A stretch of DNA of 64,000 nucleotides from the NCBI GenBank assembly GCA_045631645.1, contig JAZQVC010000038.1, positions 1,856 through 65,855 of the forward strand, in the 5' to 3' direction. This stretch comes from Oscillospiraceae bacterium. GTDB taxonomy: Bacteria; Bacillota; Clostridia; Oscillospirales; Oscillospiraceae. Made by a program: the position numbers and the translations under genes. How positions within the stretch are numbered: position 1 is the stretch's first letter; every line of letters begins with the position of its first letter. This document shows, piece by piece, positions 10,197 through 63,280 of this stretch. The notes beneath the pieces were generated by a model that saw only the letters and a program-made list of their open reading frames with translations, had not been told where the DNA came from and did not search any database.

Positions 10197-10300
10197 CGTT
10201 TCTCACCTCGTATCAAGCTATTTTACTACCATTTATATATAATGTCAAAACCCTATTGCATAATTTATCGAATGTGGTATACTTGCATTAATAATACAGA

Positions 10301-10424
10301 TATCTTCAGGGCAGGGTGAAAATCCCGACCGGCGGTATAGTCCGCGAGCGCTTGCGCATGAATCGGTGTAACTCCGATACCGACAGTAATGACCATTGGT
10401 CAAAGTCTGGATGGAAGAAGATAA
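10301..10424 (+). promoter_or_regulatory. FMN riboswitch (RFN element)
   Basis: cttcagggcagggtgaaaatcccgaccggcggtatagtccgcgagcg ... ccgacagt ... agtctggatggaagaag matches the RFN core. P1 pairs tatcttc with gaagata. It sits upstream of a riboflavin ECF S-component gene. Confidence 0.9.
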
Positions 10425-10454
10425 TAGCGATTTTTTACCTTCGCTTAATCTTTG

Positions 10455-10497
10455 TGCATCTGCAGATATATCTGTATGATGCATTTTTATTTTTTGG
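10455..10497 (+). terminator. Riboswitch expression-platform terminator
   Basis: tgcatctgcagata/tatctgtatgatgca hairpin followed by tttttatttttt. Confidence 0.6.
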
Positions 10498-10508
10498 AGG
10501 TAGTTCCC

Positions 10509-11060
10509 GTGAATGTTAAGCACCGTACCCGCAAACTCACCGCAATGGCTATTATGATTGCGATATCCGTTGTGTTGGTTTATTTTATTCATATCCCCAT
10601 CTTCCCTCAGGTCGCTTTTCTTGAATATGACCCCGCAGACATCTCAATTCTCATCTGCGGCTTTGCCTTCGGACCCGTTGCTGGAATTTGCGTAACAATT
10701 ATAGCATCCCTTATTCAGGGGCTCACCGTCAGCGCCCACAGCGGTGTTTACGGAATACTCATGCACGTTATTGCAACAAGCGCCTTTGTTCTTGTTTCTT
10801 CGATCATATATCGCCGGCATAAGAGCAAAAAAGCAGCAGCCATTGCGCTTATTTGCGGTGTTGCTGCAATGGTTATCGTTATGGTTCCTGCCAATCTTTT
10901 TATCACTCCTTACTTTATGGGAGTTCCCAGAAGCCTTGTCGTCGATCTTCTTGGCTTTATCGTTGCATTTAACGCCATTAAAGCCGGAATTAACGGATTT
11001 CTAACCTTCCTGCTTTATAAAAGCGTATCCAAACTTTTCAAACATTTTGAAGTTAAATAA
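10509..11060 (+). CDS. ribU: ECF transporter S component, riboflavin-specific (RibU)
   Basis: GTG start 8 nt after GGAGG. About 6 TM and about 183 aa. Directly downstream of the FMN riboswitch. Confidence 0.85.
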   Translation: MNVKHRTRKLTAMAIMIAISVVLVYFIHIPIFPQVAFLEYDPADISILICGFAFGPVAGICVTIIASLIQGLTVSAHSGVYGILMHVIATSAFVLVSSIIYRRHKSKKAAAIALICGVAAMVIVMVPANLFITPYFMGVPRSLVVDLLGFIVAFNAIKAGINGFLTFLLYKSVSKLFKHFEVK

Positions 11061-11100: not shown

Positions 11101-13380
11101 TTAAAGCTTGCTTCTAATTATCTTGCCGCTGGTGGTCTTGGGAAGTTCAGTGCGGAAGACAATGATTCTGGGATACTTATAGGGAGCGGTACGCTTCTTA
11201 ACATACTCCTGAATCTCAGCAGCGAGCTCATCGCTACCCTCATTTCCCTTAGTCAGAACGATGCTGGCTTTGACAACCTGTCCACGTACGGGATCGGGTT
11301 CAGCGGAGACACCGCATTCAAGAACATAGGGAAGTTCCATAATAACGGACTCGATTTCGAAAGGTCCGATTCTGTAACCGGAGGACTTGATAAGGTCATC
11401 AGCGCGGCCGACATACCAGAGGTAGTCATCCTCATCGCGCCATGCAAGGTCACCGGTATGGTAGAATCCGTCATGCCAAACAGCAGAGGTTTCGGCTTCA
11501 TTTTCAAAATAACCCATGAAAAGTCCGCAGGGAGCGCCATCGCTGACCTTTATGCAGATTTCACCGGGTTCGCCATCGGCAGCCTCTTCGCCTTCAGCAG
11601 TAAGCAGGTGGACATCATACAGGGGGTTAGGTTTACCCATAGAGCCGATTTTAGGCGCCATACCTACATAGTTACCGATAACGCAGGTGGTTTCGGTCTG
11701 ACCAAAACCTTCCATGATGGAGAGTCCGGTATGCTCGCGGAAGCGGTTGAAAACTTCGGGGTTCATTGCCTCGCCGGCAGTGGATGCATGCTTAATAGTG
11801 CTGAGGTCATATTTGCTGAGATCTTCTTTAATGAAGAAGCGATACATGGTGGGAGGCGCACAGAAGGTGGTTATGCCGTACTTCTTGAACATCGGCATAA
11901 TGTCATCGGCATGGAAACGGTCGAAGTCATAGACGAATACAGCTGCTTCGCAGAGCCACTGACCGAAGAGCTTGCCCCACATAGCCTTTGCCCAGCCGGT
12001 ATCGGAAATTGTGAGATGAAGTCCATCGGGATCAACACAGTGCCAATATCTTGCAGTAACGAAATGTCCGAGAGGGTATTTGCAGTTATGTGCTGCAAGC
12101 TTGGGATAGCCGGTAGAGCCGGAGGTAAATATCATCATCATAGGATCATCGCCGCAAATACTGTCCGCAGTGCGGGCGAAGCGGCTTGAATACATCTCGA
12201 ACTCATCGTCGAAGCAGTGCCATCCTTCGCACTTACCATTGACAACGATCATGTTTTTGATATTACCGTATTTTTCAATAGCGCTGCGGGATTCGATGGT
12301 GGATGTTCCGTCAGCAGTGCAGATAATATGCTTAACGTGAGCAACATCAAAGCGGTAGAGATAATCCTTCTCGAGAAGCTGGTCAACGGCCGGAATAGCA
12401 ACTGCGCCAAGTTTTTCAAGACCAATAAGTATGGGCCAGAACTGCCAGTTGCGGCGGAGAACAAGCATTACAGCATCGCCTTTTTCAATTCCCAGAGAGC
12501 GGAAATAGTTAGCAGCTCTGTTGCTCATCTTTTTCATTTCGCCAAATGTGAAACGATGCTCGCTCTTATCAGCGCCAATATGCACCATTGCAAGCTTGTC
12601 AGGCTGCTTTTCTGCTATTGCGTCAACAACATCGAAAGCGAAATTGAAACGATCGGTGTTTTTGAAAGAAATGCTCTTGAGAACACCGCTGCCGTCTTCA
12701 ACAGGCTCGATGAAGTTTTCCCAAATGCGCTTTTTGCCTGCTTCGCGGGTTGCGGTAATTGCAGGAACTGCGGCGCGCTTGGGCTGAACTTCCTCATCGG
12801 GAGTGAGAACAATAGCATAAAACTCGCAGTCGGTGCCATTGGTTGCAATGAGACCGTGAGGAGTTGTGGAGTCATAGTAAACGGTATCGCCGGGGCCAAG
12901 GATCTCGATATGATCACCAATCTGAACCTTCAGATAACCGCTTATAACGATATCGCACTCCTGACCTTCATGAGTGGTCAGTTCAATAGGCATCAGCTGA
13001 GCTTCAGGGGAAAACTTGCTGTAAACATAAAGAGGCTCTGCAATTCTGTTGCGGAATCTATGAGCAAGGTTATAGTAGGTCATTCCGTGGGCCTGCTCAA
13101 CGCGCTGTCCTTCCCCTCTTCTTGTAAGGGTATAGCTGCTGAGTCGGGGCGCAGTGCCTTCAATAAGCTCTGTAACGTCGACGCCAAGAGCCTGGGCGCA
13201 CATATAAAGGAATGCGAAGTCCAGATCCTGCTCGCCGGCCTCATAGGAAAGATACTCATCAAGAGATATGCCAATCTTCTTGGCCATATAATCTTCACTG
13301 TAACCAAGTATTGAGCGCAGTTCCTGAATACGACTGGCGATTTCCAGAATTTTGAACTGCAAAGCATTTTTTGTCTGCAT
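11101..13380 (-). CDS. Fusion protein: XRE-type HTH + cupin + AMP-forming (medium-chain-type) acyl-CoA ligase, paralog 1
   Basis: 759 aa. N-terminal HTH (LRSILGYSEDYMAKKIGISLDEYLSYEAGEQD), then a cupin (HEGQECDIVISGYLKVQIGD...PGDTVYYDSTTPHG). Ligase motifs follow: FTSGSTGYPK, GQTET, YHTGD, SSGYRIGPFEIES, SGKIIRSKL. Confidence 0.9.
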   Translation of the reverse strand: MQTKNALQFKILEIASRIQELRSILGYSEDYMAKKIGISLDEYLSYEAGEQDLDFAFLYMCAQALGVDVTELIEGTAPRLSSYTLTRRGEGQRVEQAHGMTYYNLAHRFRNRIAEPLYVYSKFSPEAQLMPIELTTHEGQECDIVISGYLKVQIGDHIEILGPGDTVYYDSTTPHGLIATNGTDCEFYAIVLTPDEEVQPKRAAVPAITATREAGKKRIWENFIEPVEDGSGVLKSISFKNTDRFNFAFDVVDAIAEKQPDKLAMVHIGADKSEHRFTFGEMKKMSNRAANYFRSLGIEKGDAVMLVLRRNWQFWPILIGLEKLGAVAIPAVDQLLEKDYLYRFDVAHVKHIICTADGTSTIESRSAIEKYGNIKNMIVVNGKCEGWHCFDDEFEMYSSRFARTADSICGDDPMMMIFTSGSTGYPKLAAHNCKYPLGHFVTARYWHCVDPDGLHLTISDTGWAKAMWGKLFGQWLCEAAVFVYDFDRFHADDIMPMFKKYGITTFCAPPTMYRFFIKEDLSKYDLSTIKHASTAGEAMNPEVFNRFREHTGLSIMEGFGQTETTCVIGNYVGMAPKIGSMGKPNPLYDVHLLTAEGEEAADGEPGEICIKVSDGAPCGLFMGYFENEAETSAVWHDGFYHTGDLAWRDEDDYLWYVGRADDLIKSSGYRIGPFEIESVIMELPYVLECGVSAEPDPVRGQVVKASIVLTKGNEGSDELAAEIQEYVKKRTAPYKYPRIIVFRTELPKTTSGKIIRSKL

Positions 13381-13414: not shown

Positions 13415-13664
13415 AAAAAAGTCCCCGGAAATCCGGGGACGGAATATACCGCGGTACCACCCTGGTTGCGGATTATAAATCCGCCACTTTTAGAGTCTTA
13501 TAAAACTCATATTGCTCTTACGCGGCTTCACGGGAGGCTCTACTAACCTTTCGGTTTTCTGCTCTCCGACTCCGGAGCGACAAGTTTCGGAAACAAACGC
13601 AATCTGCTTTCACCGACCGCAGACTCTCTGATGCGTCATAAATCCAACTCTCTCCATCATTGCC
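13415..13664 (-). promoter_or_regulatory. T-box leader 1 (tRNA-sensing transcription attenuator)
   Basis: Minus-strand RNA shows GGC-AAUGAU-GGAG (K-turn), AGAGU, the CAGAGAG AG-bulge, the GGUGAAAGC distal loop, the conserved T-box AACCAGGGUGGUACCGCGG (13449-13467) and the terminator GUCCCCGGAUUUCCGGGGAC + U6. Confidence 0.85.
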
Positions 13665-13698
13665 TTTAGTGTATTAAATTGATAAATAACTTTAAAAA

Positions 13699-13742: not shown

Positions 13743-14429
13743 TCAAAGGCTTTCTATAAGCGCAGGTATTTCATCAAGACTCTTGACTACAAACTCGGGA
13801 ACGATGTCCTCTCTGCCCTGCTTACCACTGGGATTAAACCAACAGGTATGGATTCCAACGTTGAGACCGCCCTTGATATCACTTGTGAGACTATCGCCGA
13901 TTATTATCATCTCACTCTTCTCATAAGGAGGCATCTGGGCGAAGCATTTATCGAAAAACTCTACACGGGGTTTATCAAATCCAACACGCTGAGAAATAAA
14001 TATTTCCTCAAAGAAATGACCTATGTCTGCGCTTTTAAGTCTGGGCACCTGAACGGATTCATTTCCGTTAGTGACCAAATAAAGCTTATATTTTCCATAG
14101 AGGGACTCAAGAAATTCAACAGCACCGGGAATGAAATAGTGTCCTATACCCAGATTGGTATTATAAAGCTGCTGAGTGGCGGCGCTGTCTCCCTCTACTC
14201 CAAGTGCCTCAAAAAGTCTGTCAAAACGATATACAAGGACCTGCTCTCTTGTAAGCTCTCCGCGTTCAAGCATCTCCCAGTGGCGCTTATTTATTTCGCT
14301 ATAAAGACTAATGGTCTCTTCATTAGGCTCAATTCCCACTTCGCGAAAGGTTTTCCGGATTGCAACATGTTCTGCCTTGGTGAAATCAAGCAAGGTATCA
14401 TCGCTATCAAGCAAAACCGCTTTAATCAT
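13743..14429 (-). CDS. HAD-superfamily hydrolase, YjjG-like nucleotidase subfamily
   Basis: DSDDT motif I (LLDSDDTLLDF), TNG motif II and GDS..SDI motif IV. 228 aa. Confidence 0.8.
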   Translation of the reverse strand: MIKAVLLDSDDTLLDFTKAEHVAIRKTFREVGIEPNEETISLYSEINKRHWEMLERGELTREQVLVYRFDRLFEALGVEGDSAATQQLYNTNLGIGHYFIPGAVEFLESLYGKYKLYLVTNGNESVQVPRLKSADIGHFFEEIFISQRVGFDKPRVEFFDKCFAQMPPYEKSEMIIIGDSLTSDIKGGLNVGIHTCWFNPSGKQGREDIVPEFVVKSLDEIPALIESL

Positions 14430-14484: not shown

Positions 14485-16791
14485 TTAGAGTTTGTTTCTT
14501 ATGATCTTACCGCTGATGGTCTTGGGAAGTTCATCTCTGAACTCAACAATTCTGGGATACTTATAAGGAGCAGTGCGCTTTTTGACGTATTCCTGAATCT
14601 CTTTGGCAAGCTCATCACTTGGCTGAGTACCCTTTACAAGGGTGATGCAGGCCTTTACAACCTGTCCGCGAATTTCATCGGGAGCTGCGCAAACGCCGCA
14701 TTCAAGAACATAGGGAAGTTCCATGATAACGGACTCGATCTCGAAAGGTCCGATGCGATAGCCGGAGGATTTGATAACATCATCAGCGCGTCCGACATAA
14801 TAGAAATATCCGTCCTCATCGCGCCAAGCGAGGTCACCGGTGTGGTAATAATCATCGTGCCAGCTATTATGTGTTGCATCAGGAGCATTGAAATAGCCCT
14901 TGAAGAGACCGCATGGAGCGCCATCGCCGGTGTAAATTACAATTTCGCCGGTTTCACCGTCGCCCACAAGTTCGCCATCGAGGTTCATAAGCTTAACATC
15001 ATACATGGGATTGGCCTTACCCATAGAACCAAGTTTGGGTCTTGTTCCAACAAAGTTACCGATAGTGAGGGTGGTTTCGGTCTGTCCAAATGCTTCCATA
15101 ATAGTAAGACCAGTTGCTTCCTTGAAACGGTTGAAAACTTCGGGGTTAAGAGCCTCGCCGGCGGTAGTGGCATGCTTGATGGAGCTAAGATCGTACTTGC
15201 TGAGATCTTCCTTGATGAAGAAACGGTACATAGTGGGAGGTGCGCAGAAGCTGGTTATGCCGTATTTAGCAAACATAGGCATAATGTCATCTGCTGCGAA
15301 TCTATCAAAGTCATATACAAAGGTTGCTCCACCGCACATCCACTGTCCATAGAGTTTGCCCCAAAGAGCCTTACCCCAACCGGTTTCAGAAATTGTGAAA
15401 TGAACGCCGTTGGGATCGATATTATGCCAGAAACGGGCAGTTACATAGTGTCCGATGGGATATCTGTAGCTATGGTCAACAGCCTTGGGATAGCCGGAAG
15501 TTCCGGAAGAGAAAAGCATCAGCATAGTGTCATCGCCACAGGGACTATCCTCGGTGCGGCTGAAACGGCTGGAATACATATCATATTCATCGTCAAAGCT
15601 GTGCCATCCTTCGCGAGTGCCGCCTGCAATAACCTTAAGACGGACACTGGGGCAGCGTTCCATTGCCTTCTCTGCTTCAACAGAGCTTGTTCCGAAGGCG
15701 CTGCAAACAACTGCAGAGACATTTGCGGCATTGAAGCGATATTCGAAGTCTTTTTCAACAAGCTGGTCGGTTGCAGGTATTGCAATAGCGCCAAGCTTAT
15801 GCAGACCAACAATGATGGGCCAGAATTCCCAGTTACGGCGGAGAACAAGCATTACGCGCTCGCCTTTCTTTATACCAAGAGCACGGAAATAGTTGGCTGC
15901 TCGTGCGCTCATCTTCTTCATCTGGAGGAAGCTGAAGCGGCGCTCATTCTTCTCGCGATCGATATGTATCATTGCAAGGCGATCAGGTTCGCGCTCTGCA
16001 ATGGCATCAACAACATCAAAGGCAAAGTTGAAGCTATCAGTGTTGGAAAACTTGATGCCAACGGGAGTTCCTTTTGCGTTCACCTCAGCAGTGATGAACT
16101 TATCCATGTAGTTGGGGAATTCCTTGACCTGAGGCAGTTCAATTGCTTCGGCCGCCTTAACGGCAGAAGCGTTAACCATCTTTCCATGGCTCCATATAAG
16201 TTCTTCATCTTCATCAGGAAGAACGATGGCGCAGAAAACGCAGTCAGAACCTCCAACAGCAATCATGCCGTGAGGAGTTGAGGAGTTATAGAAGATGCTG
16301 TCGCCTGGAGCAAGAACTTCGGTGTGTTCTCCTATGCGAACCTTGAGGGAGCCTTCAATGACAATGTCGAACTCCTGACCTGCATGAGTATCCTGCTCGA
16401 TAGGCTGAGACTGCTGTGCCTCGGAATACTCATAACGAACCCAATAAGGGTCGGCCTTGCGGTTTTTGAACATGGGAGCAAGACTCTGAATAGTAATTCC
16501 CTGCTCTCTTGCAGTGAGCTGTCCGTCTCCGCGTCGGGTAACGGTATAGCCGCTGAGGCGAGGAGCACTGCCGCGAAGCAGCTCCATCATCTCAACATCA
16601 AAAAGCTCTGCACATTTATGAATATAACTAAAGGGCAGGTCTGCCTTTGCATTTTCGTAAAGCTCACATTCAGCGAGGGAGAAGCCGGTAAGCTCTGCCA
16701 TCTGCTCAATAGAGTAGCCGCAGTCAAGTCGCAGGGACTTAATTCGCAGCGCAACCTCCATCATAAGCATTCCACTGTTTGTAGTAGCCAT
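14485..16791 (-). CDS. Fusion protein: XRE-type HTH + cupin + AMP-forming (medium-chain-type) acyl-CoA ligase, paralog 2
   Basis: Start reassigned to MATTNSG (ATG at 16791, SD GGAGG 8 nt upstream), because the 872-aa tracked ORF runs through the T-box leader. Same three-domain layout and ligase motifs as paralog 1: FSSGTSGYPK, GQTET, YHTGD, SSGYRIGPFEIES, SGKIIRNKL. Confidence 0.9.
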   Translation of the reverse strand: MATTNSGMLMMEVALRIKSLRLDCGYSIEQMAELTGFSLAECELYENAKADLPFSYIHKCAELFDVEMMELLRGSAPRLSGYTVTRRGDGQLTAREQGITIQSLAPMFKNRKADPYWVRYEYSEAQQSQPIEQDTHAGQEFDIVIEGSLKVRIGEHTEVLAPGDSIFYNSSTPHGMIAVGGSDCVFCAIVLPDEDEELIWSHGKMVNASAVKAAEAIELPQVKEFPNYMDKFITAEVNAKGTPVGIKFSNTDSFNFAFDVVDAIAEREPDRLAMIHIDREKNERRFSFLQMKKMSARAANYFRALGIKKGERVMLVLRRNWEFWPIIVGLHKLGAIAIPATDQLVEKDFEYRFNAANVSAVVCSAFGTSSVEAEKAMERCPSVRLKVIAGGTREGWHSFDDEYDMYSSRFSRTEDSPCGDDTMLMLFSSGTSGYPKAVDHSYRYPIGHYVTARFWHNIDPNGVHFTISETGWGKALWGKLYGQWMCGGATFVYDFDRFAADDIMPMFAKYGITSFCAPPTMYRFFIKEDLSKYDLSSIKHATTAGEALNPEVFNRFKEATGLTIMEAFGQTETTLTIGNFVGTRPKLGSMGKANPMYDVKLMNLDGELVGDGETGEIVIYTGDGAPCGLFKGYFNAPDATHNSWHDDYYHTGDLAWRDEDGYFYYVGRADDVIKSSGYRIGPFEIESVIMELPYVLECGVCAAPDEIRGQVVKACITLVKGTQPSDELAKEIQEYVKKRTAPYKYPRIVEFRDELPKTISGKIIRNKL

Positions 16792-16828
16792 AAAATCGCC
16801 TCCAGAAAATAATGTGAGATGCGGAGAT

Positions 16829-17101
16829 AAAATAAAAACCCGCCTCAAAGATACAAGACCTTGAGACGAGCTAAACATTAACCCGCGGTACCACTCAAAT
16901 TGCGATTTGAAAAATCGCCACTCATCGGACTCTGTCAAGCCCTTGGCATTAACGCAGCCTTCACGTGGACTCTTACCCGATTTTACCCGCTCGGAATCCC
17001 GACTCGGAAGTGATGGACATATTGGCGTCTTCGTCATCCGCTTGCAGCAAAACGCGGACTCTCTGTGTCGGAAGGACATCCATGTCGTCTTCGTCATTGT
17101 C
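16829..17101 (-). promoter_or_regulatory. T-box leader 2 (tRNA-sensing transcription attenuator)
   Basis: Minus-strand RNA shows GAC-AAUGAC-GAAG (K-turn), the CAGAGAG AG-bulge, the conserved T-box AAUUUGAGUGGUACCGCGGG (16882-16901) and a terminator hairpin CGUCUCAAGG/CUUUGAGGCG + GGUUUUUAUUUU. Confidence 0.85.
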
Positions 17102-17111
17102 ATTTGAAGAT

Positions 17112-17140
17112 ATTAAAGCACTTACATTATTTTTTGTCAA
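17112..17140 (-). promoter_or_regulatory. Putative sigma-A promoter for T-box leader 2
   Basis: Minus strand TTGACA-17 nt-TTTAAT just upstream of Stem I. Confidence 0.45.
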
Positions 17141-17224
17141 TCACTTTAGTTATTAAATATATACAAAAAGCGTATTTTATTTATCAAATTAAATTGATGA
17201 AGAGTAAAAAATTATCAAACTTTC

Positions 17225-17253
17225 TTGACGGAGCAAATTAAGGGATATATAAT
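17225..17253 (+). promoter_or_regulatory. Putative sigma-A promoter of the P-loop/oxidoreductase operon
   Basis: TTGACG-17 nt-TATAAT, 46 nt upstream of the 17299 start. Confidence 0.5.
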
Positions 17254-17298
17254 CAACAAATGGCGCTTTATACATTAATCTAAGGAAAGTCGGAGTAT

Positions 17299-18003
17299 AT
17301 GACGAATTTTCTCTCGCTTATGGCACATGGGCCAAGAAAAATTGCCGTTACAGGGCATTTCGGCTGCGGTAAAACCGAGTTTGCCGTATCCCTTGCAATG
17401 GCATTGGCAAAATTAAATATTCCAAATCTGGCTCTTGCGGATCTTGATCTCGAAAACCCCTATTTCCGCTCAAGAGAGAGAATGACCGAGCTTGAGAACG
17501 CCGGTATAAAGGTTTATTCCGACCCTTTCAAAGGTAAAAACGGCAGCGAGCTTCAAACACTGGATCCTGCCATAAGAGCGCCTCTCGAAAATCCCGATTG
17601 CAGAGTTATTCTCGATGCAGGCGGCGACTTTACAGGCGCAATGATACTTAATCAGTATTCAAAATATCTTAAGGAAGATACTCAGCTTCTTTATGTACTC
17701 AACAAAAACCGCCCCGGAACAAGCGATCTGGAAGGTGCGCTCTTTCAGCTGAAAAGCATTGAAGAAACCACCTCTCTTTCCGTAAGCGGCATAATATCCA
17801 ATTCTCATCTTATCCGATATACAAGCGAGGAAGATATTATTGAAGGCTGGGAATTTGCTCAGGAAGTGAGCAAAGCAACCAGCATACCCGTTCTTTGCGC
17901 ATGCTGCATGGAACAACTTGCTCCTTTAGTCAGCGGAAAAGGATTTGACGTGTTCCCCATCGGAATGTACATGAGGGACAGCTATCTTGACAAACAAGTT
18001 TGA
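17299..18003 (+). CDS. SIMIBI-class P-loop NTPase of unknown function, first gene of the 2-oxoacid oxidoreductase operon
   Basis: Walker A GHFGCGKT, Walker B-like VILDAGGD, and a possible degenerate NKxD (LNKNR). 234 aa. Confidence 0.6.
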   Translation: MTNFLSLMAHGPRKIAVTGHFGCGKTEFAVSLAMALAKLNIPNLALADLDLENPYFRSRERMTELENAGIKVYSDPFKGKNGSELQTLDPAIRAPLENPDCRVILDAGGDFTGAMILNQYSKYLKEDTQLLYVLNKNRPGTSDLEGALFQLKSIEETTSLSVSGIISNSHLIRYTSEEDIIEGWEFAQEVSKATSIPVLCACCMEQLAPLVSGKGFDVFPIGMYMRDSYLDKQV

Positions 18004-18024
18004 TTCACATATTTGGAGGTAATT

Positions 18025-18264
18025 ATGTTTAAGAGATTCAAAGTCCTATTTAACAGAGACAAGTGCAAGGGCTGCGAGCTTTGCGTAAACTTCTGCCCTA
18101 TGAAGATAATAGAAATGGACAAAAGCAGCGTCAACAGCAAGGGCTATCATCCCGCTTCCATTGACGAGGACAATATGGAGTGCTGCGTAGGCTGCTCCAG
18201 CTGCGCCCTGATGTGCCCTGACTGCTGCATCTCCATTTATCAGCTTGAGGAGGGTGAAGAATGA
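18025..18264 (+). CDS. 2-oxoacid:ferredoxin oxidoreductase delta subunit (2x[4Fe-4S] ferredoxin)
   Basis: CKGCELCVNFCP and CVGCSSCALMCP cluster motifs. ATG 7 nt after GGAGG. Confidence 0.85.
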   Translation: MFKRFKVLFNRDKCKGCELCVNFCPMKIIEMDKSSVNSKGYHPASIDEDNMECCVGCSSCALMCPDCCISIYQLEEGEE

Positions 18265-19337
18265 AAAAGATACTTATGAAAGGTAATGAGGCATTTGCTG
18301 AGGCTGCCATTCGCGCAGGCTGCAAGTGCTACTGCGGCTATCCCATCACCCCTCAGAATGAAATACCCGAATACATGAGCCACGAGCTTCCCAAGGCAGG
18401 CGGCGCATTTGTGCAGGCCGAAAGCGAGCTTGCAGCTGTCAATATGGCCTACGGCGCTGCAGCAAGCGGCGGAAGAGTTTTCATCTCCTCTTCCTCCCCC
18501 GGAATCAGCCTTATGCAGGAAGGTCTCGGCTTCATCTGTTCTGCCGAAGTTCCCCTTGTTGTACTCAACGTCTCCCGCGGCGGCCCCGGCGTTGGCGGCA
18601 TTCAGCCCGGTCAGGCAGACTATAATCAGGTTACCCGCGGCGGCTATAACGGCGACTGCAAGATCCCCGTATTTGCACCCGCAGGAATTCAGGAATGCGT
18701 TGACCTTATTTATGAATGCTTCGACCTCGCTGAAGAATACCGCAATCCTATGATGATTCTTGCCGACGGTATGATGGGACAGATGATGGAGCCCATTGTT
18801 CTTCCCGAAGCTAAGGGTATTACCCCTGTTGATAAAATCTCCGAGGAAAAGCCCTGGGCCATCACCGGCACAGACTCTCACCCCGGCAGAAATGTAATCT
18901 ATTCTCTGCGTATGGAGCCCGATGTTCTTGAAAAGCATGTTTATCATCTCTTCGAAAAGTACGAAAAAGCAGAGAAAGAGCTTGTGCGTTACAAATCTCA
19001 GGGTCTTGAAGATGCTGAAATTGTTTTTGTTGCATTCGGAACTATGAGCCGTCTTTGCGCAGAAGCAATTGAGCTTCTTGGCGAAAAAGGCATTAAGGCA
19101 GGTATGATCCGTCCTATCAGCCTTTGGCCCTTCCCCGACAAGGCTTTTGACGAAATCGGCGATAAGTGCAAAATTGTTATTTCCACTGAGCTCAGCATGG
19201 GTCAGATGCTTGCGGATGTTAAGTCCGCCGTGGCAGGTCGTTGGAAATGCGGTCTTATAAACCGCACCGGTGGCATTGTCCCCTCCTCTCTTGAGATCGT
19301 CGAGAGAGCAATCAAACTTTGGGAGGAAGCCAAATGA
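18261..19337 (+). CDS. 2-oxoacid:ferredoxin oxidoreductase alpha subunit
   Basis: 358 aa: MKGNEAFAEAAIRAGC..YPITPQNEI...QAESELAAVNMAYGAAASG, the typical Kor/Vor/Por alpha N-terminus. Overlaps delta by 4 nt. Confidence 0.9.
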   Translation: MKKILMKGNEAFAEAAIRAGCKCYCGYPITPQNEIPEYMSHELPKAGGAFVQAESELAAVNMAYGAAASGGRVFISSSSPGISLMQEGLGFICSAEVPLVVLNVSRGGPGVGGIQPGQADYNQVTRGGYNGDCKIPVFAPAGIQECVDLIYECFDLAEEYRNPMMILADGMMGQMMEPIVLPEAKGITPVDKISEEKPWAITGTDSHPGRNVIYSLRMEPDVLEKHVYHLFEKYEKAEKELVRYKSQGLEDAEIVFVAFGTMSRLCAEAIELLGEKGIKAGMIRPISLWPFPDKAFDEIGDKCKIVISTELSMGQMLADVKSAVAGRWKCGLINRTGGIVPSSLEIVERAIKLWEEAK

Positions 19338-20080
19338 AAACCATATTTGAACCCACAAAAGGCATCGTCCCTGTTGACAACAGCTACTGCCCCGGTTGCT
19401 CCCACGGCATTGCCCATCGTCTCATAATGGAATGCCTTGAAGAACGCGGCCGCCTTGGCAAAACCATCGGCGTTGTCCCCATCGGCTGCTCCATCAACGC
19501 TCATCACTTTATGAACATCGACATGTGCGAATCCACCCATGGACGCGCCCCTGCAATCGCCAGCGGTATTCGCCGCGTGCATCCCGACAAGACCGTTTTC
19601 ACCTATCAGGGTGACGGCGACCTTGCATCCATTGGCGCAGGCGAAATTGTACACGCAGCCCATCGCGGCGAGAAGTTTACTACTTTCTTTATCAATAACG
19701 CCATTTACGGTATGACTGGCGGCCAGATGGCTCCCACCACCCTTATCGGACAGAGAGCAACCACCGCTGTTGACGGTCGCACCAAGGAACAGGCAGGTCT
19801 GCCCCTCAGAGTAAGCGAAATGCTTGCAACCATTGACGGCGCTGTTTTTGTTGAGCGCGTTATGCTTAATAACCCCGCTAATATCCGCAAGGCAAAAAAG
19901 GCCATTCACAAGGCTTTGGATGTTCAGGACGCAGGTCTTGGTTTCAGCTTTGTTGAGTTTCTCTCCGTTTGTCCCACCAACTGGGGCTACAATCCTTATG
20001 ACGCCATAAAGTGGATGGAGAAGAACATGGCCGAATATTATCCCATTGGAAATTTCAAGTGCCCGGAGGAAATGAAGTAA
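19334..20080 (+). CDS. 2-oxoacid:ferredoxin oxidoreductase beta subunit (TPP-binding)
   Basis: CPGCSHG, GDGD and NNAIYGMTGGQ motifs. ATGA overlap with alpha. Confidence 0.9.
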   Translation: MKTIFEPTKGIVPVDNSYCPGCSHGIAHRLIMECLEERGRLGKTIGVVPIGCSINAHHFMNIDMCESTHGRAPAIASGIRRVHPDKTVFTYQGDGDLASIGAGEIVHAAHRGEKFTTFFINNAIYGMTGGQMAPTTLIGQRATTAVDGRTKEQAGLPLRVSEMLATIDGAVFVERVMLNNPANIRKAKKAIHKALDVQDAGLGFSFVEFLSVCPTNWGYNPYDAIKWMEKNMAEYYPIGNFKCPEEMK

Positions 20081-20081
20081 T

Positions 20082-20609
20082 ATGAAACGCAAACTCTTTT
20101 TCGCCGGAAGCGGCGGTCAGGGCACTCTCGCACTGGGCCAGATGATTGCAAAAGCCGCTATGGATGAGGGAAAAGAAGTCACCTGGCTTCCCTCCTATGG
20201 ACCTGAAATGCGCGGCGGCACCGCAAACTGCACTGTTGTTGTCTCCGACAAGGCTATAAGCTGCCCACTCATTAACGATGCCGATGTACTCGTCGCCATG
20301 AATCTCCCTTCCCTGCGCAAATTTGAGAACATGGTAAATCCCGGCGGCGTTATCCTTATGAACACTTCTCTTATTCCTGAAAAATGCCTTCGCGATGATG
20401 TCAAGGTTGTAGAAATTCCCTGCAATGACCTCGCAAAGGAACTGGGAAATGAAAAATGCGCTAACATCATTATGCTTGGCGCCATTTTGAAGGAAACCGA
20501 AATTGTTTCCCTCGAGACCATTCATGAGCAGCTTGAGCATATGTTCTCCGGACGTAAAGCCGCTTTCCTGCCCCTTAACAAGAAGGCACTTGACATCTAC
20601 ACCAAATGA
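20082..20609 (+). CDS. 2-oxoacid:ferredoxin oxidoreductase gamma subunit
   Basis: 175 aa: AGSGGQGTLALGQMIA...YGPEMRGGTANCTV, the gamma-subunit signature. Confidence 0.9.
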   Translation: MKRKLFFAGSGGQGTLALGQMIAKAAMDEGKEVTWLPSYGPEMRGGTANCTVVVSDKAISCPLINDADVLVAMNLPSLRKFENMVNPGGVILMNTSLIPEKCLRDDVKVVEIPCNDLAKELGNEKCANIIMLGAILKETEIVSLETIHEQLEHMFSGRKAAFLPLNKKALDIYTK

Positions 20610-20615
20610 GTAATA

Positions 20616-20649
20616 AAAAGCTGAGAGAATATTTCTCTCAGCTTTTTTT
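20616..20649. terminator. Bidirectional intrinsic terminator
   Basis: agctgagaga-atatt-tctctcagct flanked by A5 and T7. Confidence 0.8.
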
Positions 20650-21320
20650 CATGAGCAAAATCTATGCTTTCCTATTACTGTTATAAGTGGTCTTGACCAT
20701 ATCCACTTACTTGTTGCAGTTGAAGGATTGAAATAGTAAATCGCTCCGCCCGATGGATCCCAACCGTTCATTGCATCTCTCGCCGCTTTATAGGCAGAAT
20801 CTGCTACAGGTTCATTGAACTGACCGTCATCTATACAGGTAAACGCCCCTGACTGGTAAATAACTCCTGACATTGTGTTGGGGAAAGAAGGATGCTCCAT
20901 ACGGTTAAGGACAACGGCACCCACCGCCACCTGACCTACATATGGCTCTCCTCTTGCTTCAGCAGATATGAGCCTTGCAAGAAGAGCAACATCTCCGCTT
21001 CCGCTTGAAGAAGCTGATCCCTGCGCATTTATACCCATATATGAAAGGGTTTGCTCGCCTGCAATTCCGTCTACCTTCAGGCCAAATCGCTTTTGATATT
21101 TCTTAACTGCTTCCTCGGTTCCGCTACCGTACACACCATCTACCGCTCCCGAGTAAAAGCCCTGGTTTTTCAAAAGTGTTTGTATCTGGCTCACAACAGA
21201 GCCCGTTGAACCTTTTTTGTAGCTGGCAGCATCAACATACTGCACAAGAGAAATAATGAGTATGTTAACAGCAAACACAACGACAAGAGCAAGATATAAC
21301 TTTTTTCTTGATTGTGACAT
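20649..21320 (-). CDS. Cell-wall hydrolase of the SleB/CwlJ family with a peptidoglycan-binding domain
   Basis: N-terminal TM, a PG_binding_1-like segment (VSQIQTLLKNQGFYSGAVDGVYGSGTEEAVKKYQ) and a C-terminal Hydrolase_2 motif (ARLISAEARGEPYVGQVAVGAVVLNR). Confidence 0.8.
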   Translation of the reverse strand: MSQSRKKLYLALVVVFAVNILIISLVQYVDAASYKKGSTGSVVSQIQTLLKNQGFYSGAVDGVYGSGTEEAVKKYQKRFGLKVDGIAGEQTLSYMGINAQGSASSSGSGDVALLARLISAEARGEPYVGQVAVGAVVLNRMEHPSFPNTMSGVIYQSGAFTCIDDGQFNEPVADSAYKAARDAMNGWDPSGGAIYYFNPSTATSKWIWSRPLITVIGKHRFCS

Positions 21321-22625: not shown

Positions 22626-23645
22626 TTACTCTGATAATTCTCCGCGAAGATTCTTCTCCATAAGACTCTTGATGCGCTGGGAAGAGCAGCGTTTTGCAAA
22701 GAGATAGCGAAGCTTAGTAACTGCAGCTTCAACAGTCATATCTCCACCGCTTACAGCACCGGCTCTTTTCAATGCAGAGCTTGTTTCATAAGTTCCAAGC
22801 TGAACCTTGCCGCGGAGGCACTGGGTGCACACAACAATGATTGTGCCGTTATCTGCAGCCTTGCTTATAAGGGGCAAAAGTTCCGCATCATACTGGGGAA
22901 TATTGCCCACACCGAATGCTTCGATAACAAGAGCTTTGAGGTTCTCCGTCATTATATTCTCAAACATTCTGAACTGTATGCCGGGGAATATTTTTAAAAC
23001 TGCAATAGGAAGATCCTCTGCAAAATCCACAACATTAAGATCATTTTCTTTCTCACGGATAAGAGCATCAATATAGCGAATATCTATCGCAGCAGTGGCG
23101 AGAGGCGGAAAATTGGGAGAAGAGAACGCTTCCATTTCATCTGCAGAAACTTTTGTGGAACGATTGCCGCGAAGAAGTTTTTTGCCGAAATATAGGCAAA
23201 CTTCGGGCACTCTGCCTTCACCTGCAATAATAATAGAGCCGATAAGATTATCCCGTGCGTCGGAGCGGGCATGGCCGATGGGAATCTGCGCACCTGTCAA
23301 AACAACAGTTTTACCCAGTCCTTCAAGCATAAAGCTAAGAGCGGAGGCTGTATATGCCATTGTATCCGTTCCATGAAGAATGACAAAGCCGTCATACTTA
23401 TCATAATTATCTTTTATGGTGTGAGCCATAGCGCTCCAATCGCTTATGGAGATATTGCTGGAATCACAAATATGCTCAAACTCAATTAGCTCCCACTGGG
23501 GCATTCCGGAGTGGAAAAGCTCACTCATTCTTCCAAGCACTCGATGAAGATAACCGCTTTTGGTTGCATATCCGTCCTCGGTTTCCACCATACCGATAGT
23601 GCCGCCGGTATATATAATGAGAACTTTTTTATTGGATAACATCAA
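22626..23645 (-). CDS. ansA: Type I L-asparaginase
   Basis: YTGGTIGM N-terminal Thr motif and the HGTDTM second motif. 339 aa. Confidence 0.9.
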   Translation of the reverse strand: MMLSNKKVLIIYTGGTIGMVETEDGYATKSGYLHRVLGRMSELFHSGMPQWELIEFEHICDSSNISISDWSAMAHTIKDNYDKYDGFVILHGTDTMAYTASALSFMLEGLGKTVVLTGAQIPIGHARSDARDNLIGSIIIAGEGRVPEVCLYFGKKLLRGNRSTKVSADEMEAFSSPNFPPLATAAIDIRYIDALIREKENDLNVVDFAEDLPIAVLKIFPGIQFRMFENIMTENLKALVIEAFGVGNIPQYDAELLPLISKAADNGTIIVVCTQCLRGKVQLGTYETSSALKRAGAVSGGDMTVEAAVTKLRYLFAKRCSSQRIKSLMEKNLRGELSE

Positions 23646-24202
23646 TATTGTCCTCCAGTAGGTAATTTAATGTTCTTTCGTATTTTTTTAACAAGTGCAG
23701 GTGTAACAAAAGCAAACAAAACAGCCAGAATAATGCTTATAACAAACTTAGGTATAAGCAAACCGAACACCAACGCATAGGAATAATATTTATAAATTAT
23801 ACTGTCCACATAAAGAGCAAGAGTATTCAGTGCGGTTGTAAGTATACCTGCAATAATGGTGAAAACCATAAGAGCACCAACGGACGGTGAATAATTCTTA
23901 TGTTTGGAATAAAATCCTATAATCAGACCACGAACTATAACGGGCAACATCCAAAGCAAGGTTGTTGGAGTAATGCCATAGCCAGAAAAGAAAAGCTGAT
24001 ATATGCCGCTCCCCAAAAAGCCTATAAGAGAACCATGGAAAGGACCAAACATTACAGCTCCAACAATTATTGGAAATGCATCAAGGGTAAACTTGAAATT
24101 AGCCACCCTGAAGGCAATGGAATTTAAGACAACATACATGGCAACAAGAACAGCGTCGGTGGCCATCATGCGTATATTGAGTCTTCCCTTTCTTCCACTC
24201 AT
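23642..24202 (-). CDS. folT: ECF transporter S component, folate family (FolT)
   Basis: 186 aa and about 6 TM. Directly downstream of a THF riboswitch. 4-nt overlap with ansA. Confidence 0.8.
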   Translation of the reverse strand: MSGRKGRLNIRMMATDAVLVAMYVVLNSIAFRVANFKFTLDAFPIIVGAVMFGPFHGSLIGFLGSGIYQLFFSGYGITPTTLLWMLPVIVRGLIIGFYSKHKNYSPSVGALMVFTIIAGILTTALNTLALYVDSIIYKYYSYALVFGLLIPKFVISIILAVLFAFVTPALVKKIRKNIKLPTGGQY

Positions 24203-24258
24203 AAAGAAACTCCTTTCGTGACAGTTGCCACGAAAGGAGCATTAATCGTCCCTATTTG

Positions 24259-24360
24259 GTGGCAGCGGATGCGGGAAAAGCATCGCACACCTATAAAGGT
24301 GCTTCGTCCTGAGACAACTCCCATCCTCAGGCACTTGACGCGCAGTTCCCTACTCTGTCC
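24259..24360 (-). promoter_or_regulatory. THF (tetrahydrofolate) riboswitch
   Basis: Minus-strand RNA ACAGAGUAGGGAACUGCGCGUCAAGUGCCUGAGGAUGGGAGUUGUCUCAGGACGAAGCACC...GCAUCCGCUGCC closely parallels the folT-motif THF aptamer as I recall it (AGAGUAG..CGCGUUAAGUG..GAAUGGGAUG..ACGAAGC..GCAUCCGCU). Confidence 0.85.
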
Positions 24361-24395: not shown

Positions 24396-25256
24396 TTACT
24401 TCTTTGTCACCATATTTTCTGCACTTTCAAGAGTATGACGGAGCAAAACAGCAGTTGTAACAGCGCCGACTCCGCCGGGCACAGGCGTTACATAGGATGC
24501 GATTTCTTCAGCAGCAGAAAAATTAACGTCTCCGCACATTTTTCCATCGTCATCAAAGTTGATACCGACATCAATAACGCACTGTCCTTCGCGGAAATAA
24601 TCACCATTGAGAGCCTTTGCTTTTCCAAGGGCTGCAACAACAATATCAGCCTTCCTGGAAATTTCATCGGCGCCAAGGGTGTGGCTATGGCAGACAGTTA
24701 CAGTTGCATTTTCAGCCATTAGAAGCATACTGACAGGCTTTCCGATAACCAGACTGCGTCCAAACACGACAGCTTGGCGGGATGCAATGGGGATATTGTA
24801 ATATTTGAGAATTTCTATTACGGCGCGAGCAGTGCAAGGGGCAAAGCCGCTGCCTTTTCCTGAATACACGAAAGCCGCCGAGCCTGATGTTACACCGTCA
24901 ACATCCTTCGCAGGCAATATAGTTTCACGTACAAGAGTTTCATCAATATGGGAAGGAAGAGGCATGAAGACAAGAATTCCATGAACATTATTATCATTAT
25001 TCAGCTCAGTGATAACACTGATTATTTCGTCCTGACTTACGCTTTCGCTCAGGACAATTTGTTTTGCCTCCACATTTAATGTGCTACAGCGCTTGAGAAT
25101 ACCTCTTTCATATGCAATGTCATCTCCTCGTTCACCAACTCTTACAATGGCAAGACAAGGGCTTATTCCTTTATCTCTGAGAGAAAGGCAAATTGCTTTT
25201 GAACCTTCATTCAAAGCGGATGCAACCGCCGCTCCCTTCAAAATTTCAGCGCTCAT
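24396..25256 (-). CDS. folD: Bifunctional methylene-THF dehydrogenase / methenyl-THF cyclohydrolase
   Basis: 286 aa: GRSLVIGKPVSMLL, TPVPGGVGAVT; canonical FolD. Confidence 0.95.
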   Translation of the reverse strand: MSAEILKGAAVASALNEGSKAICLSLRDKGISPCLAIVRVGERGDDIAYERGILKRCSTLNVEAKQIVLSESVSQDEIISVITELNNDNNVHGILVFMPLPSHIDETLVRETILPAKDVDGVTSGSAAFVYSGKGSGFAPCTARAVIEILKYYNIPIASRQAVVFGRSLVIGKPVSMLLMAENATVTVCHSHTLGADEISRKADIVVAALGKAKALNGDYFREGQCVIDVGINFDDDGKMCGDVNFSAAEEIASYVTPVPGGVGAVTTAVLLRHTLESAENMVTKK

Positions 25257-25870
25257 TTAAGTCTCTCCCAAACTTTTTCATAAACATTTTCAGCGATTTT
25301 CCAATGCTCGGACATAAGAGAATCCACTTCATCGTTAAGCTTCTCTGCATATGCTCGGTCTGTCATTAGTTTTGTATTCACTCTGACATTCATAGCCGCT
25401 CCATAAAGAGACGCCCAAAGGATGATAACGCCCGTACCAACATCAGAAACAGCCAAAACACTTCCAATTTCCTCAAGACGACGGTGAATCTTAATCCCCT
25501 TGCAGGAAAGACGAACTATTTCCATAGGCGGCTCAGCAGCCAAACGAAGGCATCGCTCCATCTCCTCAGCTCTGGTAGGATCATCCTTGGGTATTGAGTA
25601 GGCTTTTGACAAGGGCTCAAAGGCTTTTGCATCCTCATCAATAAGGCATTGACATTTGCTCACGAGCTCCTCAAGTTCATGTAGCAGCTTATTAAGCTCA
25701 TCTTCATACTGAGAATACTTTTTCTTGCCTATCGTAAGATTCACAACCATTGAACCGAGAGCGCAGCCCAAAGATGCTGCAAGAGCGCTTGCTCCGCCGC
25801 CACCGGGCACGGCAGAACGGGATGCCAAAAGAGTATTAAAATTATCTATCTGCATTGCAGAAAAATCCAT
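25253..25870 (-). CDS. fchA: Cyclodeaminase/cyclohydrolase family protein (FTCD_C-like, FchA-type)
   Basis: VPGGGGASALAASLG motif. Start set at the internal Met because the longer ORF runs into the upp terminator hairpin. Confidence 0.75.
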   Translation of the reverse strand: MDFSAMQIDNFNTLLASRSAVPGGGGASALAASLGCALGSMVVNLTIGKKKYSQYEDELNKLLHELEELVSKCQCLIDEDAKAFEPLSKAYSIPKDDPTRAEEMERCLRLAAEPPMEIVRLSCKGIKIHRRLEEIGSVLAVSDVGTGVIILWASLYGAAMNVRVNTKLMTDRAYAEKLNDEVDSLMSEHWKIAENVYEKVWERLK

Positions 25871-25885
25871 AATAGAACCGTCCTT

Positions 25886-25917
25886 CAATAAAACGGGAGG
25901 CAATAATTCCTCCCGTT
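25886..25917 (-). terminator. Intrinsic terminator after upp
   Basis: Minus strand aaacgggagg-aattattg-cctcccgtttt. Confidence 0.65.
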
Positions 25918-37091: not shown

Positions 37092-37159
37092 AAAGCTTAC
37101 CTTGTAATAAAATTTAAGTTGATATATAATAATGAAAATTTTACACGGAGTTGAAAGCC

Positions 37160-47035: not shown

Positions 47036-47109
47036 TGGAACGGATAACGGGAATCGAACCCGCCTCTACGGCTTGGGAAGCCGTCATTCTACCGATGAAC
47101 TATATCCGC
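47036..47109 (-). tRNA. tRNA-Gly (anticodon CCC), CCA encoded
   Basis: Minus strand GCGGATATAGTTCATCGGTAGAATGACGGCTTCCCAAGCCGTAGAGGCGGGTTCGATTCCCGTTATCCGTTCCA. It folds as a cloverleaf with anticodon loop TTCCCAA and T-loop TTCGATT. Confidence 0.9.
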
Positions 47110-63071: not shown

Positions 63072-63280
63072 ATTATTGCCCCCTAAAATAAGTTTACATA
63101 AATTATAGAGGACGGCACTCGGAAAACCTGTCATAGGGTGCTGTTGATAAATATTGTTTATGATATGGAAATGACGGGAAATATGTTAGTCAATTTTCCC
63201 CTAATCCCAAGCTTATTGATTTTTGCACGAAAATGTGTAAAAATAAGCTTATAAAATAAGTGCGAATGGAGGGATTTATC

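Follow-up and report, generated by a model that had tools for sequence, protein, structure and literature searches.

The DNA analysed here is a stretch of 64,000 nucleotides from contig JAZQVC010000038.1 of an Oscillospiraceae bacterium (hereafter, the window). Its positions 17299–20609 hold a plus-strand operon for a P-loop NTPase and a four-subunit 2-oxoacid:ferredoxin oxidoreductase (OFOR). Two acyl-CoA ligase genes, each behind a T-box leader, lie on the opposite strand. A first-pass annotation had proposed that these genes form a salvage module leading from branched acids through acyl-CoAs and 2-oxoacids to amino acids. Our analysis points to an OFOR of the VOR type, which probably serves, together with the two ligases, in the assimilation of branched acids. 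Inspection of the sequence and its open reading frames (ORFs) confirmed the predicted delta-alpha-beta-gamma (DABG) operon with its P-loop gene. All five genes are real, and they follow each other on the plus strand in the claimed order:

17299–18003, plus strand: P-loop NTPase, predicted SIMIBI class, 234 aa, Walker A motif GHFGCGKT; first gene of the operon
18025–18264, plus strand: delta subunit, 2x[4Fe-4S] ferredoxin-like, 79 aa, two CxxCxxCxxxCP motifs
18261–19337, plus strand: alpha subunit, VorB type, 358 aa, POR_N and PFOR_II domains, YPITP motif at residue 27
19334–20080, plus strand: beta subunit, binding thiamine pyrophosphate (TPP) and the proximal cluster, 248 aa, TPP_enzyme_C domain, CPGC, GDG and NNAIYGMTGGQ motifs
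20082–20609, plus strand: gamma subunit, 175 aa, POR domain (PF01558) at 148 bits

The delta gene starts with the ATG at 18025, which is preceded by a GGAGG ribosome-binding site. Its product matched Fer4 models of Pfam and OorD/PorD-type models of NCBIfam, all under cutoff. The gamma subunit scored 89.3 bits against TIGR02175 (PorC_KorC), above the cutoff of 81.1 bits. In the beta subunit, the motif pattern NNxxYGMTGGQ is read as NNAIYGMTGGQ. Separate delta, alpha, beta and gamma subunits were thus found with the cofactor motifs of a VOR-type enzyme (YPITP; GDG...NN for TPP; the Cys ligands; the 2x[4Fe-4S] delta subunit). The subunit genes had been described as joined by 4-nt overlaps. This held for two of the three junctions, delta/alpha and alpha/beta, where the overlap is ATGA, and failed for beta/gamma, where the genes are separated by a 1-nt gap. 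The P-loop and delta genes lie 21 nt apart.

The minus-strand neighbours are two paralogous ligases with their leaders:

14485–16791, minus strand: ligase 2, with HTH_3, Cupin_2 and AMP-forming acyl-CoA synthetase domains (Pfam) in a single polypeptide; ATG at 16791, ribosome-binding site GGAGG
16859–17106, minus strand: T-box leader ahead of ligase 2, Ile specifier (AUC), RF00230 at 84.4 bits, E 1e-18
16872–16837, minus strand: terminator hairpin of the ligase 2 T-box (terminator scan)
11101–13380, minus strand: ligase 1, paralogous helix-turn-helix (HTH)-cupin-AMP-forming acyl-CoA synthetase (Pfam domains)
13432–13669, minus strand: T-box leader ahead of ligase 1, Val specifier (GUC), RF00230 at 101.5 bits, above the gathering score of 93

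The leader of ligase 2 scored below the Rfam gathering score of 93, with a match to the full length of the model (positions 1–219). It is a complete T-box, having the AUC specifier, the T-box sequence UGGUACCGCG and a terminator hairpin with a U-run; each of the two ligase leaders carries such a hairpin. The specifier codons of the window were taken from the cmscan alignments. The best NCBIfam match of both ligases was MbcS (NF047394). Among solved structures, the ligase domain came closest to 3ETC (626 bits), from Methanosarcina acetivorans, which fits the first-pass remark that an archaeal ligase of this clade prefers 2-methylbutyrate. Staphylococcus aureus MbcS and M. acetivorans MacsMa (3ETC) are therefore the closest named and solved relatives, respectively. 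The window ligases differ from both in their N-terminal HTH_3 and Cupin_2 domains and in their T-box leaders, and MbcS feeds lipid synthesis.

A mechanical ORF at 14485–17103 (872 aa) was rejected as the extent of ligase 2. It is an artefact of in-frame read-through of the T-box leader, the real start being at 16791, and automatic gene callers could over-extend the gene in the same way. Between the two T-box–ligase units lies a gene for a YjjG-type haloacid dehalogenase-like pyrimidine nucleotidase (13743–14429, minus strand; TIGR02254 at 216 bits, above cutoff). It is probably not part of the module, because it is absent at this position in two related metagenomic contigs (L001 and L004, introduced below).

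The ATG codons of the P-loop gene and ligase 2 are 507 bp apart, in line with the earlier estimate of about 500 bp between the operon and ligase 2 on opposite strands. As had also been proposed, this one intergenic region holds both promoters, which stand back to back, about 85 bp from each other:

17225–17253, plus strand: sigma-70-type promoter of the P-loop-DABG operon, TTGACG-17-TATAAT, 11/12 consensus matches
17112–17140, minus strand: putative promoter of the T-box(Ile)–ligase 2 transcript, TTGACA (17140–17135), 17 nt, TTTAAT (17117–17112), found by eye
17183–17198: imperfect palindrome between the divergent promoters, ATCAAATTAAATTGAT
about 20615–20649: hairpin with flanking A-run and T-run, aaaaAGCTGAGAGAatatttTCTCTCAGCTttttttt, read directly; putative bidirectional terminator, common to the convergent sleB

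The minus-strand promoter (TTGACA-17-TTTAAT) scored under the threshold of the promoter scan; from it, transcription would begin at position 17106, where the T-box match has its 5' end. The hairpin at about 20615–20649 is likely the bidirectional terminator of the OFOR operon and sleB, and a simple terminator scan did not report it.

Affiliation of the oxidoreductase

The alpha subunit scored 469.6 bits against the NCBIfam model NF005507 ('VorB'; cutoff 399) and failed the OorA, KorA, PorA and Pyrococcus-VOR models of the same collection by wide margins. It reached 240 bits against NF007206 (OorA; cutoff 579), and the beta model NF007207 gave 104 bits (cutoff 364). The alpha scores of 76.8 bits against NF006232 (cutoff 646) and 93 bits against NF040682 (cutoff 550) do not fit the classical archaeal/Thermotoga G-D-A-B type of POR/VOR. 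Database labels alone do not settle the OFOR type, since they disagree: public homologues with 76–99% identity bear the name VorB in PGAP annotation and '2-oxoglutarate ferredoxin oxidoreductase' in that of JGI.

We then compared the window proteins with alpha and beta sequences of assayed enzymes, taken from Table S6 of PMC13290082, the paper that also reports their activities. The identities to the window alpha/beta subunits are as follows:

VOR of I. bartlettii: 51/64%
VOR of C. sporogenes, validated genetically: 50/55%
B. hydrogenotrophica RUMHYD_00551/50 (branched-chain activity): 50/62%
M. marburgensis VOR: 45/45%
Two aromatic-preferring Blautia enzymes: 45/42–45%
KOR/OGOR enzymes: 33–34/32–37%
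Thermococcus classical type, T. litoralis OCC_07491/86: 26/22%

A neighbour-joining tree (numpy implementation) was built from 93 alpha+beta sequences with 586 columns and 300 bootstraps. The VOR clade that includes the window enzyme received 97% bootstrap support, and KOR/OGOR formed a separate clade with 100%. When the VOR clade was taken without a trio of aromatic-preferring enzymes, it retained the window enzyme with 82% support. The phylogenetic placement thus groups the alpha and beta subunits with characterised VORs and not with 2-oxoglutarate or pyruvate enzymes, which upholds the VOR-type assignment of the first-pass annotation.

A 2-oxoglutarate:ferredoxin oxidoreductase (Kor/Oor), converting succinyl-CoA to 2-oxoglutarate, was the obvious alternative. 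It draws on the D-A-B-G order, which matches OorDABC, on the JGI names of some homologues and on the nearest solved structures, which include 8ys5 and 6n2n for alpha as well as for beta. The order is indeed shared with Helicobacter-type OorDABC and archaeal KOR/OGOR, as had been cautioned, but it is uninformative, since validated clostridial VORs keep the same order. The failed OorA model, the identities of only 32–37% to the separate KOR/OGOR clade and neighbouring genes that point to Ile/Val, not glutamate, make this reading, already disfavoured, scarcely credible.

The closest characterised relatives of the window operon are clostridial. The 'porA' cluster of C. sporogenes, CLOSPO_00145–00149, and B. 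hydrogenotrophica RUMHYD_00553–00549 belong to the same OFOR family and have the same P-loop-delta-alpha-beta-gamma order; I. bartlettii CLOBAR_01196–01193 is of the same family. With these VORs, the window operon shares 50–64% identity in alpha/beta and 36–42% in the P-loop protein. All three enzymes turn over the three branched-chain 2-oxoacids (PMC13290082). Aromatic 2-oxoacids are nevertheless the preferred substrates of some enzymes that are VOR-like by sequence (PMC13290082), and membership in the VOR clade is no guarantee of a branched-chain preference. We therefore considered an arylpyruvate-preferring enzyme of the HpdDEFG or RUMHYD_03063–66 kind. The window enzyme stands outside the aromatic trio, its identity of 42–45% to the aromatic-preferring enzymes contrasts with the 50–64% to the branched-chain enzymes, and the ligase T-boxes read Ile and Val, which leaves this alternative very unlikely. 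Model scores and phylogeny place the predicted product of the operon among the VOR-type OFORs and not among the 2-oxoglutarate or pyruvate enzymes.

Neighbourhoods and T-box specifiers in related genomes

To collect related loci, we scanned GTDB with a single genome for each species and retained, of more than 600 matches, 80 species loci (L006–L085) with alpha identities of 48–81%. These come from Bacillota, Spirochaetota, Bacteroidota, Fusobacteriota, Actinomycetota and other phyla. The nearest GTDB loci are rumen metagenome-assembled genomes (MAGs). Metagenomic contigs L001–L004, with alpha identities of 86% and 82%, carry the same two fused ligases divergent from P-loop-DABG. The DABG order is kept in 80/80 species loci, and the fused HTH-cupin-ligase adjoins the OFOR in 15. 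The ligase-linked OFORs fall in three separate OFOR clades, each with 100% bootstrap support:

Clade A, including the window: Oscillospiraceae/Lachnospiraceae and rumen MAGs, ligase-linked OFOR
Clade B: Christensenellaceae and other Clostridia, ligase-linked OFOR
Coriobacteriia clade: ligase-linked OFOR

Because it recurs in three OFOR clades and 15/80 species, the adjacency of ligase and OFOR is meaningful; across the genomes compared it is conserved and not a local accident. The arrangement is not always divergent. One or more ligase genes lie directly upstream of the OFOR on the same strand in L036, L047, L048, L050, L070 and L074; L059 and L068 show this orientation too, with more DNA in between. 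In L047, L070 and L074, about 20 nt separate the stop codon of the ligase from the start of the P-loop gene. In same-strand loci such as these three, the OFOR is apparently transcribed from the T-box-controlled promoter(s), as one transcript. A class-IV aminotransferase gene follows gamma in L004 (a Lachnospiraceae MAG), L010, L011, L035, L047, L059, L074 and L080, and a partial one was found at the upstream contig end of L044. Besides L004, eight of the 80 species loci have such a gene. The aminotransferase of L059 is a bona fide IlvE (NF009897 at 492 bits; cutoff 307).

A different neighbourhood was found in Peptostreptococcaceae, Clostridium, Fusibacter, Romboutsia and Alkalispirochaeta, where butyrate-kinase-like and phosphotransbutyrylase genes lie directly upstream of P-loop-DABG. 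This catabolic neighbour set consists of buk-ptb-buk genes. Phosphotransbutyrylase (PTB) and/or butyrate kinase (BUK) genes accompany 25 of the 80 loci, a fused ligase and/or IlvE 19, and both sets none; 36 loci have neither set, many of these contigs being cut short. For the VORs of C. sporogenes and C. difficile, such a ptb/buk arrangement is described as yielding ATP. The clostridial VOR operons serve amino-acid oxidation and stand with phosphotransbutyrylase and butyrate-kinase genes, whereas the window operon faces T-box-gated AMP-forming ligases.

These distributions bear on the simplest alternative, namely that the enzyme is simply a catabolic VOR like that of C. sporogenes, oxidising 2-oxoacids derived from branched-chain amino acids, and that its position beside the ligases has no meaning here. 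Enzyme family and operon type do match CLOSPO_00145–00149, and the operon has its own promoter. The recurrence of the ligase in three clades, often directly upstream on the same strand, is hard to reconcile with this view. Neither ptb nor buk is present in the window, and in the 80 loci these genes never occur alongside the ligases. We regard the catabolic explanation as quite improbable.

T-box specifiers provided a second line of comparison. We located 22 T-box leaders by the UGGUACCGCG motif and aligned them, anchoring the alignment on the two cmscan-aligned leaders of the window. Ligase-2-type genes all have ATC (Ile), in the window, L001, L006, L007, L008, L047, L059, L068, L070 and L074. 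Ligase-1-type genes all have GTC or GTA (Val), in the window, L001, L047, L059 and L074. Thus, 15/15 ligase-linked T-boxes read Ile or Val, and the specifier goes with the ligase paralogue. The earlier assignment of a Val T-box to ligase 1 and an Ile T-box to ligase 2 is borne out by the GUC and AUC codons of the window and by their recurrence in relatives.

In L047, L059 and L074, a third T-box with a CTC (Leu) specifier precedes a divergent LeuA-like gene and a different AMP-forming ligase. These units, and others of the Leu type, were found at the following positions:

L047, 1930–3444, minus strand: Leu unit
L074, 1546–3046, minus strand: Leu unit
L059, 14049–18006, plus strand: Leu unit
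L004, 12368–16254: Leu-type unit; also present in L010, L011 and L080

The LeuA-like protein has HMGL-like and LeuA_dimer domains and remains below the isopropylmalate-synthase cutoffs. The ligase of the unit, of about 820 aa, carries an N-terminal AP_endonuc_2 domain (xylose-isomerase-like TIM barrel). The window lacks this unit, which may serve leucine and isovalerate as a further arm of the system. MbcS is selective for 2-methylbutyrate and isobutyrate and accepts hardly any isovalerate (PMC10026030), a preference that is echoed by the split between Ile/Val and Leu ligases.

Direction of flux and control

Rumen and gut anaerobes have been known since the 1960s to need or use isobutyrate, 2-methylbutyrate and isovalerate, from which they make Val, Ile and Leu by reductive carboxylation. 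We consider it probable that the VOR-type OFOR and the two ligases of the window form a module of this kind, which would assimilate branched acids and CO2 into Ile and Val; its flux direction and substrates are what we infer from the genes and their surroundings. In the first step, ligase 2 would convert exogenous 2-methylbutyrate, and ligase 1 isobutyrate, to the acyl-CoA, with cleavage of ATP to AMP. Each ligase, gated by its T-box antiterminator, would be made only in the presence of uncharged tRNA-Ile or tRNA-Val. In the second step, the OFOR would run in reverse and combine the acyl-CoA with CO2 and reduced ferredoxin to give 2-oxo-3-methylvalerate or 2-oxoisovalerate. A branched-chain aminotransferase would then yield Ile or Val; it would be encoded elsewhere in this genome, and in relatives its gene directly follows gamma. 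In addition, these acyl-CoAs could act as primers for branched-chain fatty acids.

The route from acid through acyl-CoA and 2-oxoacid to amino acid, as first proposed, is well supported by comparative genomics, that is, by the enzyme type, the T-boxes and the conserved synteny. AMP-forming ligases favour acyl-CoA synthesis. For a fermentative exit such a ligase is unsuitable, because two ATP equivalents are spent per thioester. The same reasoning on ligase direction was applied to the Bacteroides IOR (PMC13285125). This system, an IOR with an adjacent AMP-forming arylacetate-CoA ligase, follows the same logic from acid through acyl-CoA and 2-oxoacid to amino acid (PMC13285125), and differs from the window in having a two-subunit enzyme of the IOR family, aromatic substrates and no T-box. 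A precedent for the reductive direction is also found within the family of the window enzyme. The archaeal VorABC of Methanothermobacter marburgensis/thermautotrophicus (MTBMA_c10910–30), which lies in the same VOR clade with 45% identity, is regarded as anabolic and as acting by reductive carboxylation (PMC13285125), as proposed here. It differs from the window enzyme in its archaeal origin and in the fusion of beta and gamma in one polypeptide. To our knowledge, it has no T-box and no fused ligase neighbours.

Several observations weigh against this assimilation route. The assayed clostridial members of the family were all studied in the oxidative direction (PMC13290082), OFORs being reversible. 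The adjacency of IlvE fits either flux direction, and no branched-chain transaminase, ilv or leu gene was found in the 64-kb window. An Rfam scan found no riboswitch or T-box between the OFOR promoter and the P-loop ATG. The OFOR operon of the window has a strong promoter of its own and no T-box, so that its co-regulation with the ligases is only putative here. Substrate calls from the phylogeny of the VOR clade are soft, because some VOR-like enzymes prefer aromatics. Neither ligase reached the MbcS equivalog cutoff of 850 bits (420 and 406 bits); by these scores, they are members of the same broad clade as MbcS and not its orthologues.

Part of this evidence would also suit a supply of branched acyl-CoA for membrane lipids. 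The VOR and IlvE would then work oxidatively and turn branched-chain amino acids into primers, and the T-box ligases would supply the same acyl-CoAs from external acids when Ile or Val is scarce. Exactly this role is played in S. aureus by MbcS, the named enzyme that comes closest to the ligases (PMC10026030). The OFOR has its own, constitutive-looking promoter, its assayed relatives all act oxidatively, and IlvE adjacency is neutral as to direction. Classical work on rumen bacteria found branched acids to enter both lipids and amino acids. On the other hand, the genes under T-box control nearly always help to restore charged tRNA, whether as synthetases, biosynthesis genes or transporters. 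In several genomes, the OFOR lies downstream of the Ile/Val T-box ligases, apparently in one transcript, and such control would make little sense for an oxidative VOR if low Ile or Val leaves it without substrate. The lipid and amino-acid uses are not mutually exclusive. As an explanation of the locus, we give lipid supply a low though appreciable probability.

The ligases themselves may bear on control. Their N-terminal module, an XRE-type HTH with a cupin domain, has an architecture typical of small-molecule-sensing repressors, and the HTH-cupin-ligase fusion is kept in all 15 ligase-linked species loci, including those of Coriobacteriia without T-boxes. By analogy with BirA, it is conceivable that the ligases are dual enzyme-regulators. 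They could bind the AT-rich palindromic spacer and link OFOR transcription to branched acid or acyl-adenylate, while the T-boxes add a tRNA-Ile/Val layer; we put forward this two-layer control as a tentative and rather doubtful proposal. The palindrome at 17183–17198 is a possible, unproven operator, and a direct repeat, TTATCAAA, occurs at 17181 and 17212. Across 12 loci, no conserved operator was found upstream of the P-loop genes, and the palindrome of the window is not shared by relatives. Since no conserved operator was found, a role of the HTH-cupin domains as regulators of the OFOR operon remains speculative. If the proposal were true, many Clostridia and Coriobacteriia of rumen and gut could have, in a CO2-fixing Ile/Val route under two-layer control, a substitute for the acetolactate (ilv) pathway or a way around it.

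In the searchable literature, we found neither a description of a module of VOR, T-box HTH-cupin ligase and IlvE nor a paper that assigns genes to the reductive carboxylation of branched acids. The enzyme is a new member of a known family; the module, in which a VOR core is joined by IlvE and by HTH-cupin-fused ligases under T-box control, looks undescribed, as does its either/or relation with ptb/buk. The locus and its relatives offer a testable gene set, composed of paralogue-specific ligases whose T-boxes name the amino acid, a VOR core in common with the well-studied catabolic enzymes, and IlvE. Since ptb/buk and ligase/IlvE never occur together, the two sets could serve as a genomic marker that predicts producers and consumers of branched short-chain acids. 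Such a marker would be relevant to ruminant nutrition, where branched-acid supplements are used, and to faecal branched-acid levels.

The P-loop protein and other features of the window

The first gene of the operon encodes a protein with no Pfam or NCBIfam match, and a PDB sequence search with it gave no significant match. It is homologous to CLOSPO_00145 (42% identity over 121 aa, E 5e-28) and to RUMHYD_00553 (36% identity). A P-loop homologue is the first gene of the expression constructs CLOSPO_00145–00149 and RUMHYD_00553–00549 (PMC13290082), and in 55 of the 80 species loci one adjoins DABG, nearly always directly upstream. The AlphaFold2 model of the protein had a pLDDT of 84.7. Foldseek returned the signal recognition particle GTPases Ffh/FtsY, ATPase-type HypB and NifH with probability 1.0, at a TM score of only about 0.5. 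GxxGxGK(T), DxD, NPYFR (after DxD), DxGG and N135/R138 are conserved family-wide, and PF01656 is annotated on some homologues. The model and these motifs suggest a SIMIBI-class protein (MinD/ParA/SRP/NifH-like) that falls in no named subfamily.

A CACC motif at residues 200–203 is invariant at identities of at least 62% and absent in the wider P-loop family. As it is conserved only among close relatives, we rejected it as a metal or Fe–S site of the kind found in CooC and Nbp35. Our guess is that the protein is an assembly or maturation factor, because its gene occurs in both catabolic and putatively anabolic VOR operons. It is not strictly required for oxidative activity, since a construct that lacked a P-loop gene gave active I. 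bartlettii VOR in E. coli lysate (PMC13290082). This NTPase, conserved but so far without a name, deserves notice as a regular component of VOR operons.

Aminotransferase genes of another class were seen further along the window. A pair for a SerA-like D-2-hydroxyacid dehydrogenase and a SerC-like class-V aminotransferase lies at 33474–35727 (minus strand), neither being branched-chain class IV; a second class-V aminotransferase, likewise not of the branched-chain class, is encoded at 37151–38296.

Two riboswitches were also noticed. At 10298–11060 (plus strand), a flavin mononucleotide (FMN) riboswitch (98.7 bits) is followed by a riboflavin-type energy-coupling factor (ECF) S-component, and at 23642–24359 (minus strand), a tetrahydrofolate (THF) riboswitch (74.6 bits) by another ECF S-component. 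FolD- and FTCD_C-like genes (24396–25903) are found just upstream of the THF riboswitch. A tRNA-Gly(CCC) gene at 47036–47109 (minus strand) lies about 2 kb from a phage-integrase-family gene at 49176–50183 (plus strand); from this arrangement, the region may be the edge of an integrated element. The convergent neighbour of the OFOR operon encodes SleB, the spore cortex-lytic enzyme (20649–21320, minus strand; above cutoff), and SpoIIE is encoded at 60735–63134 (minus strand). Their presence indicates a spore-forming member of the Bacillota, which fits the Oscillospiraceae labels of the closest homologues.

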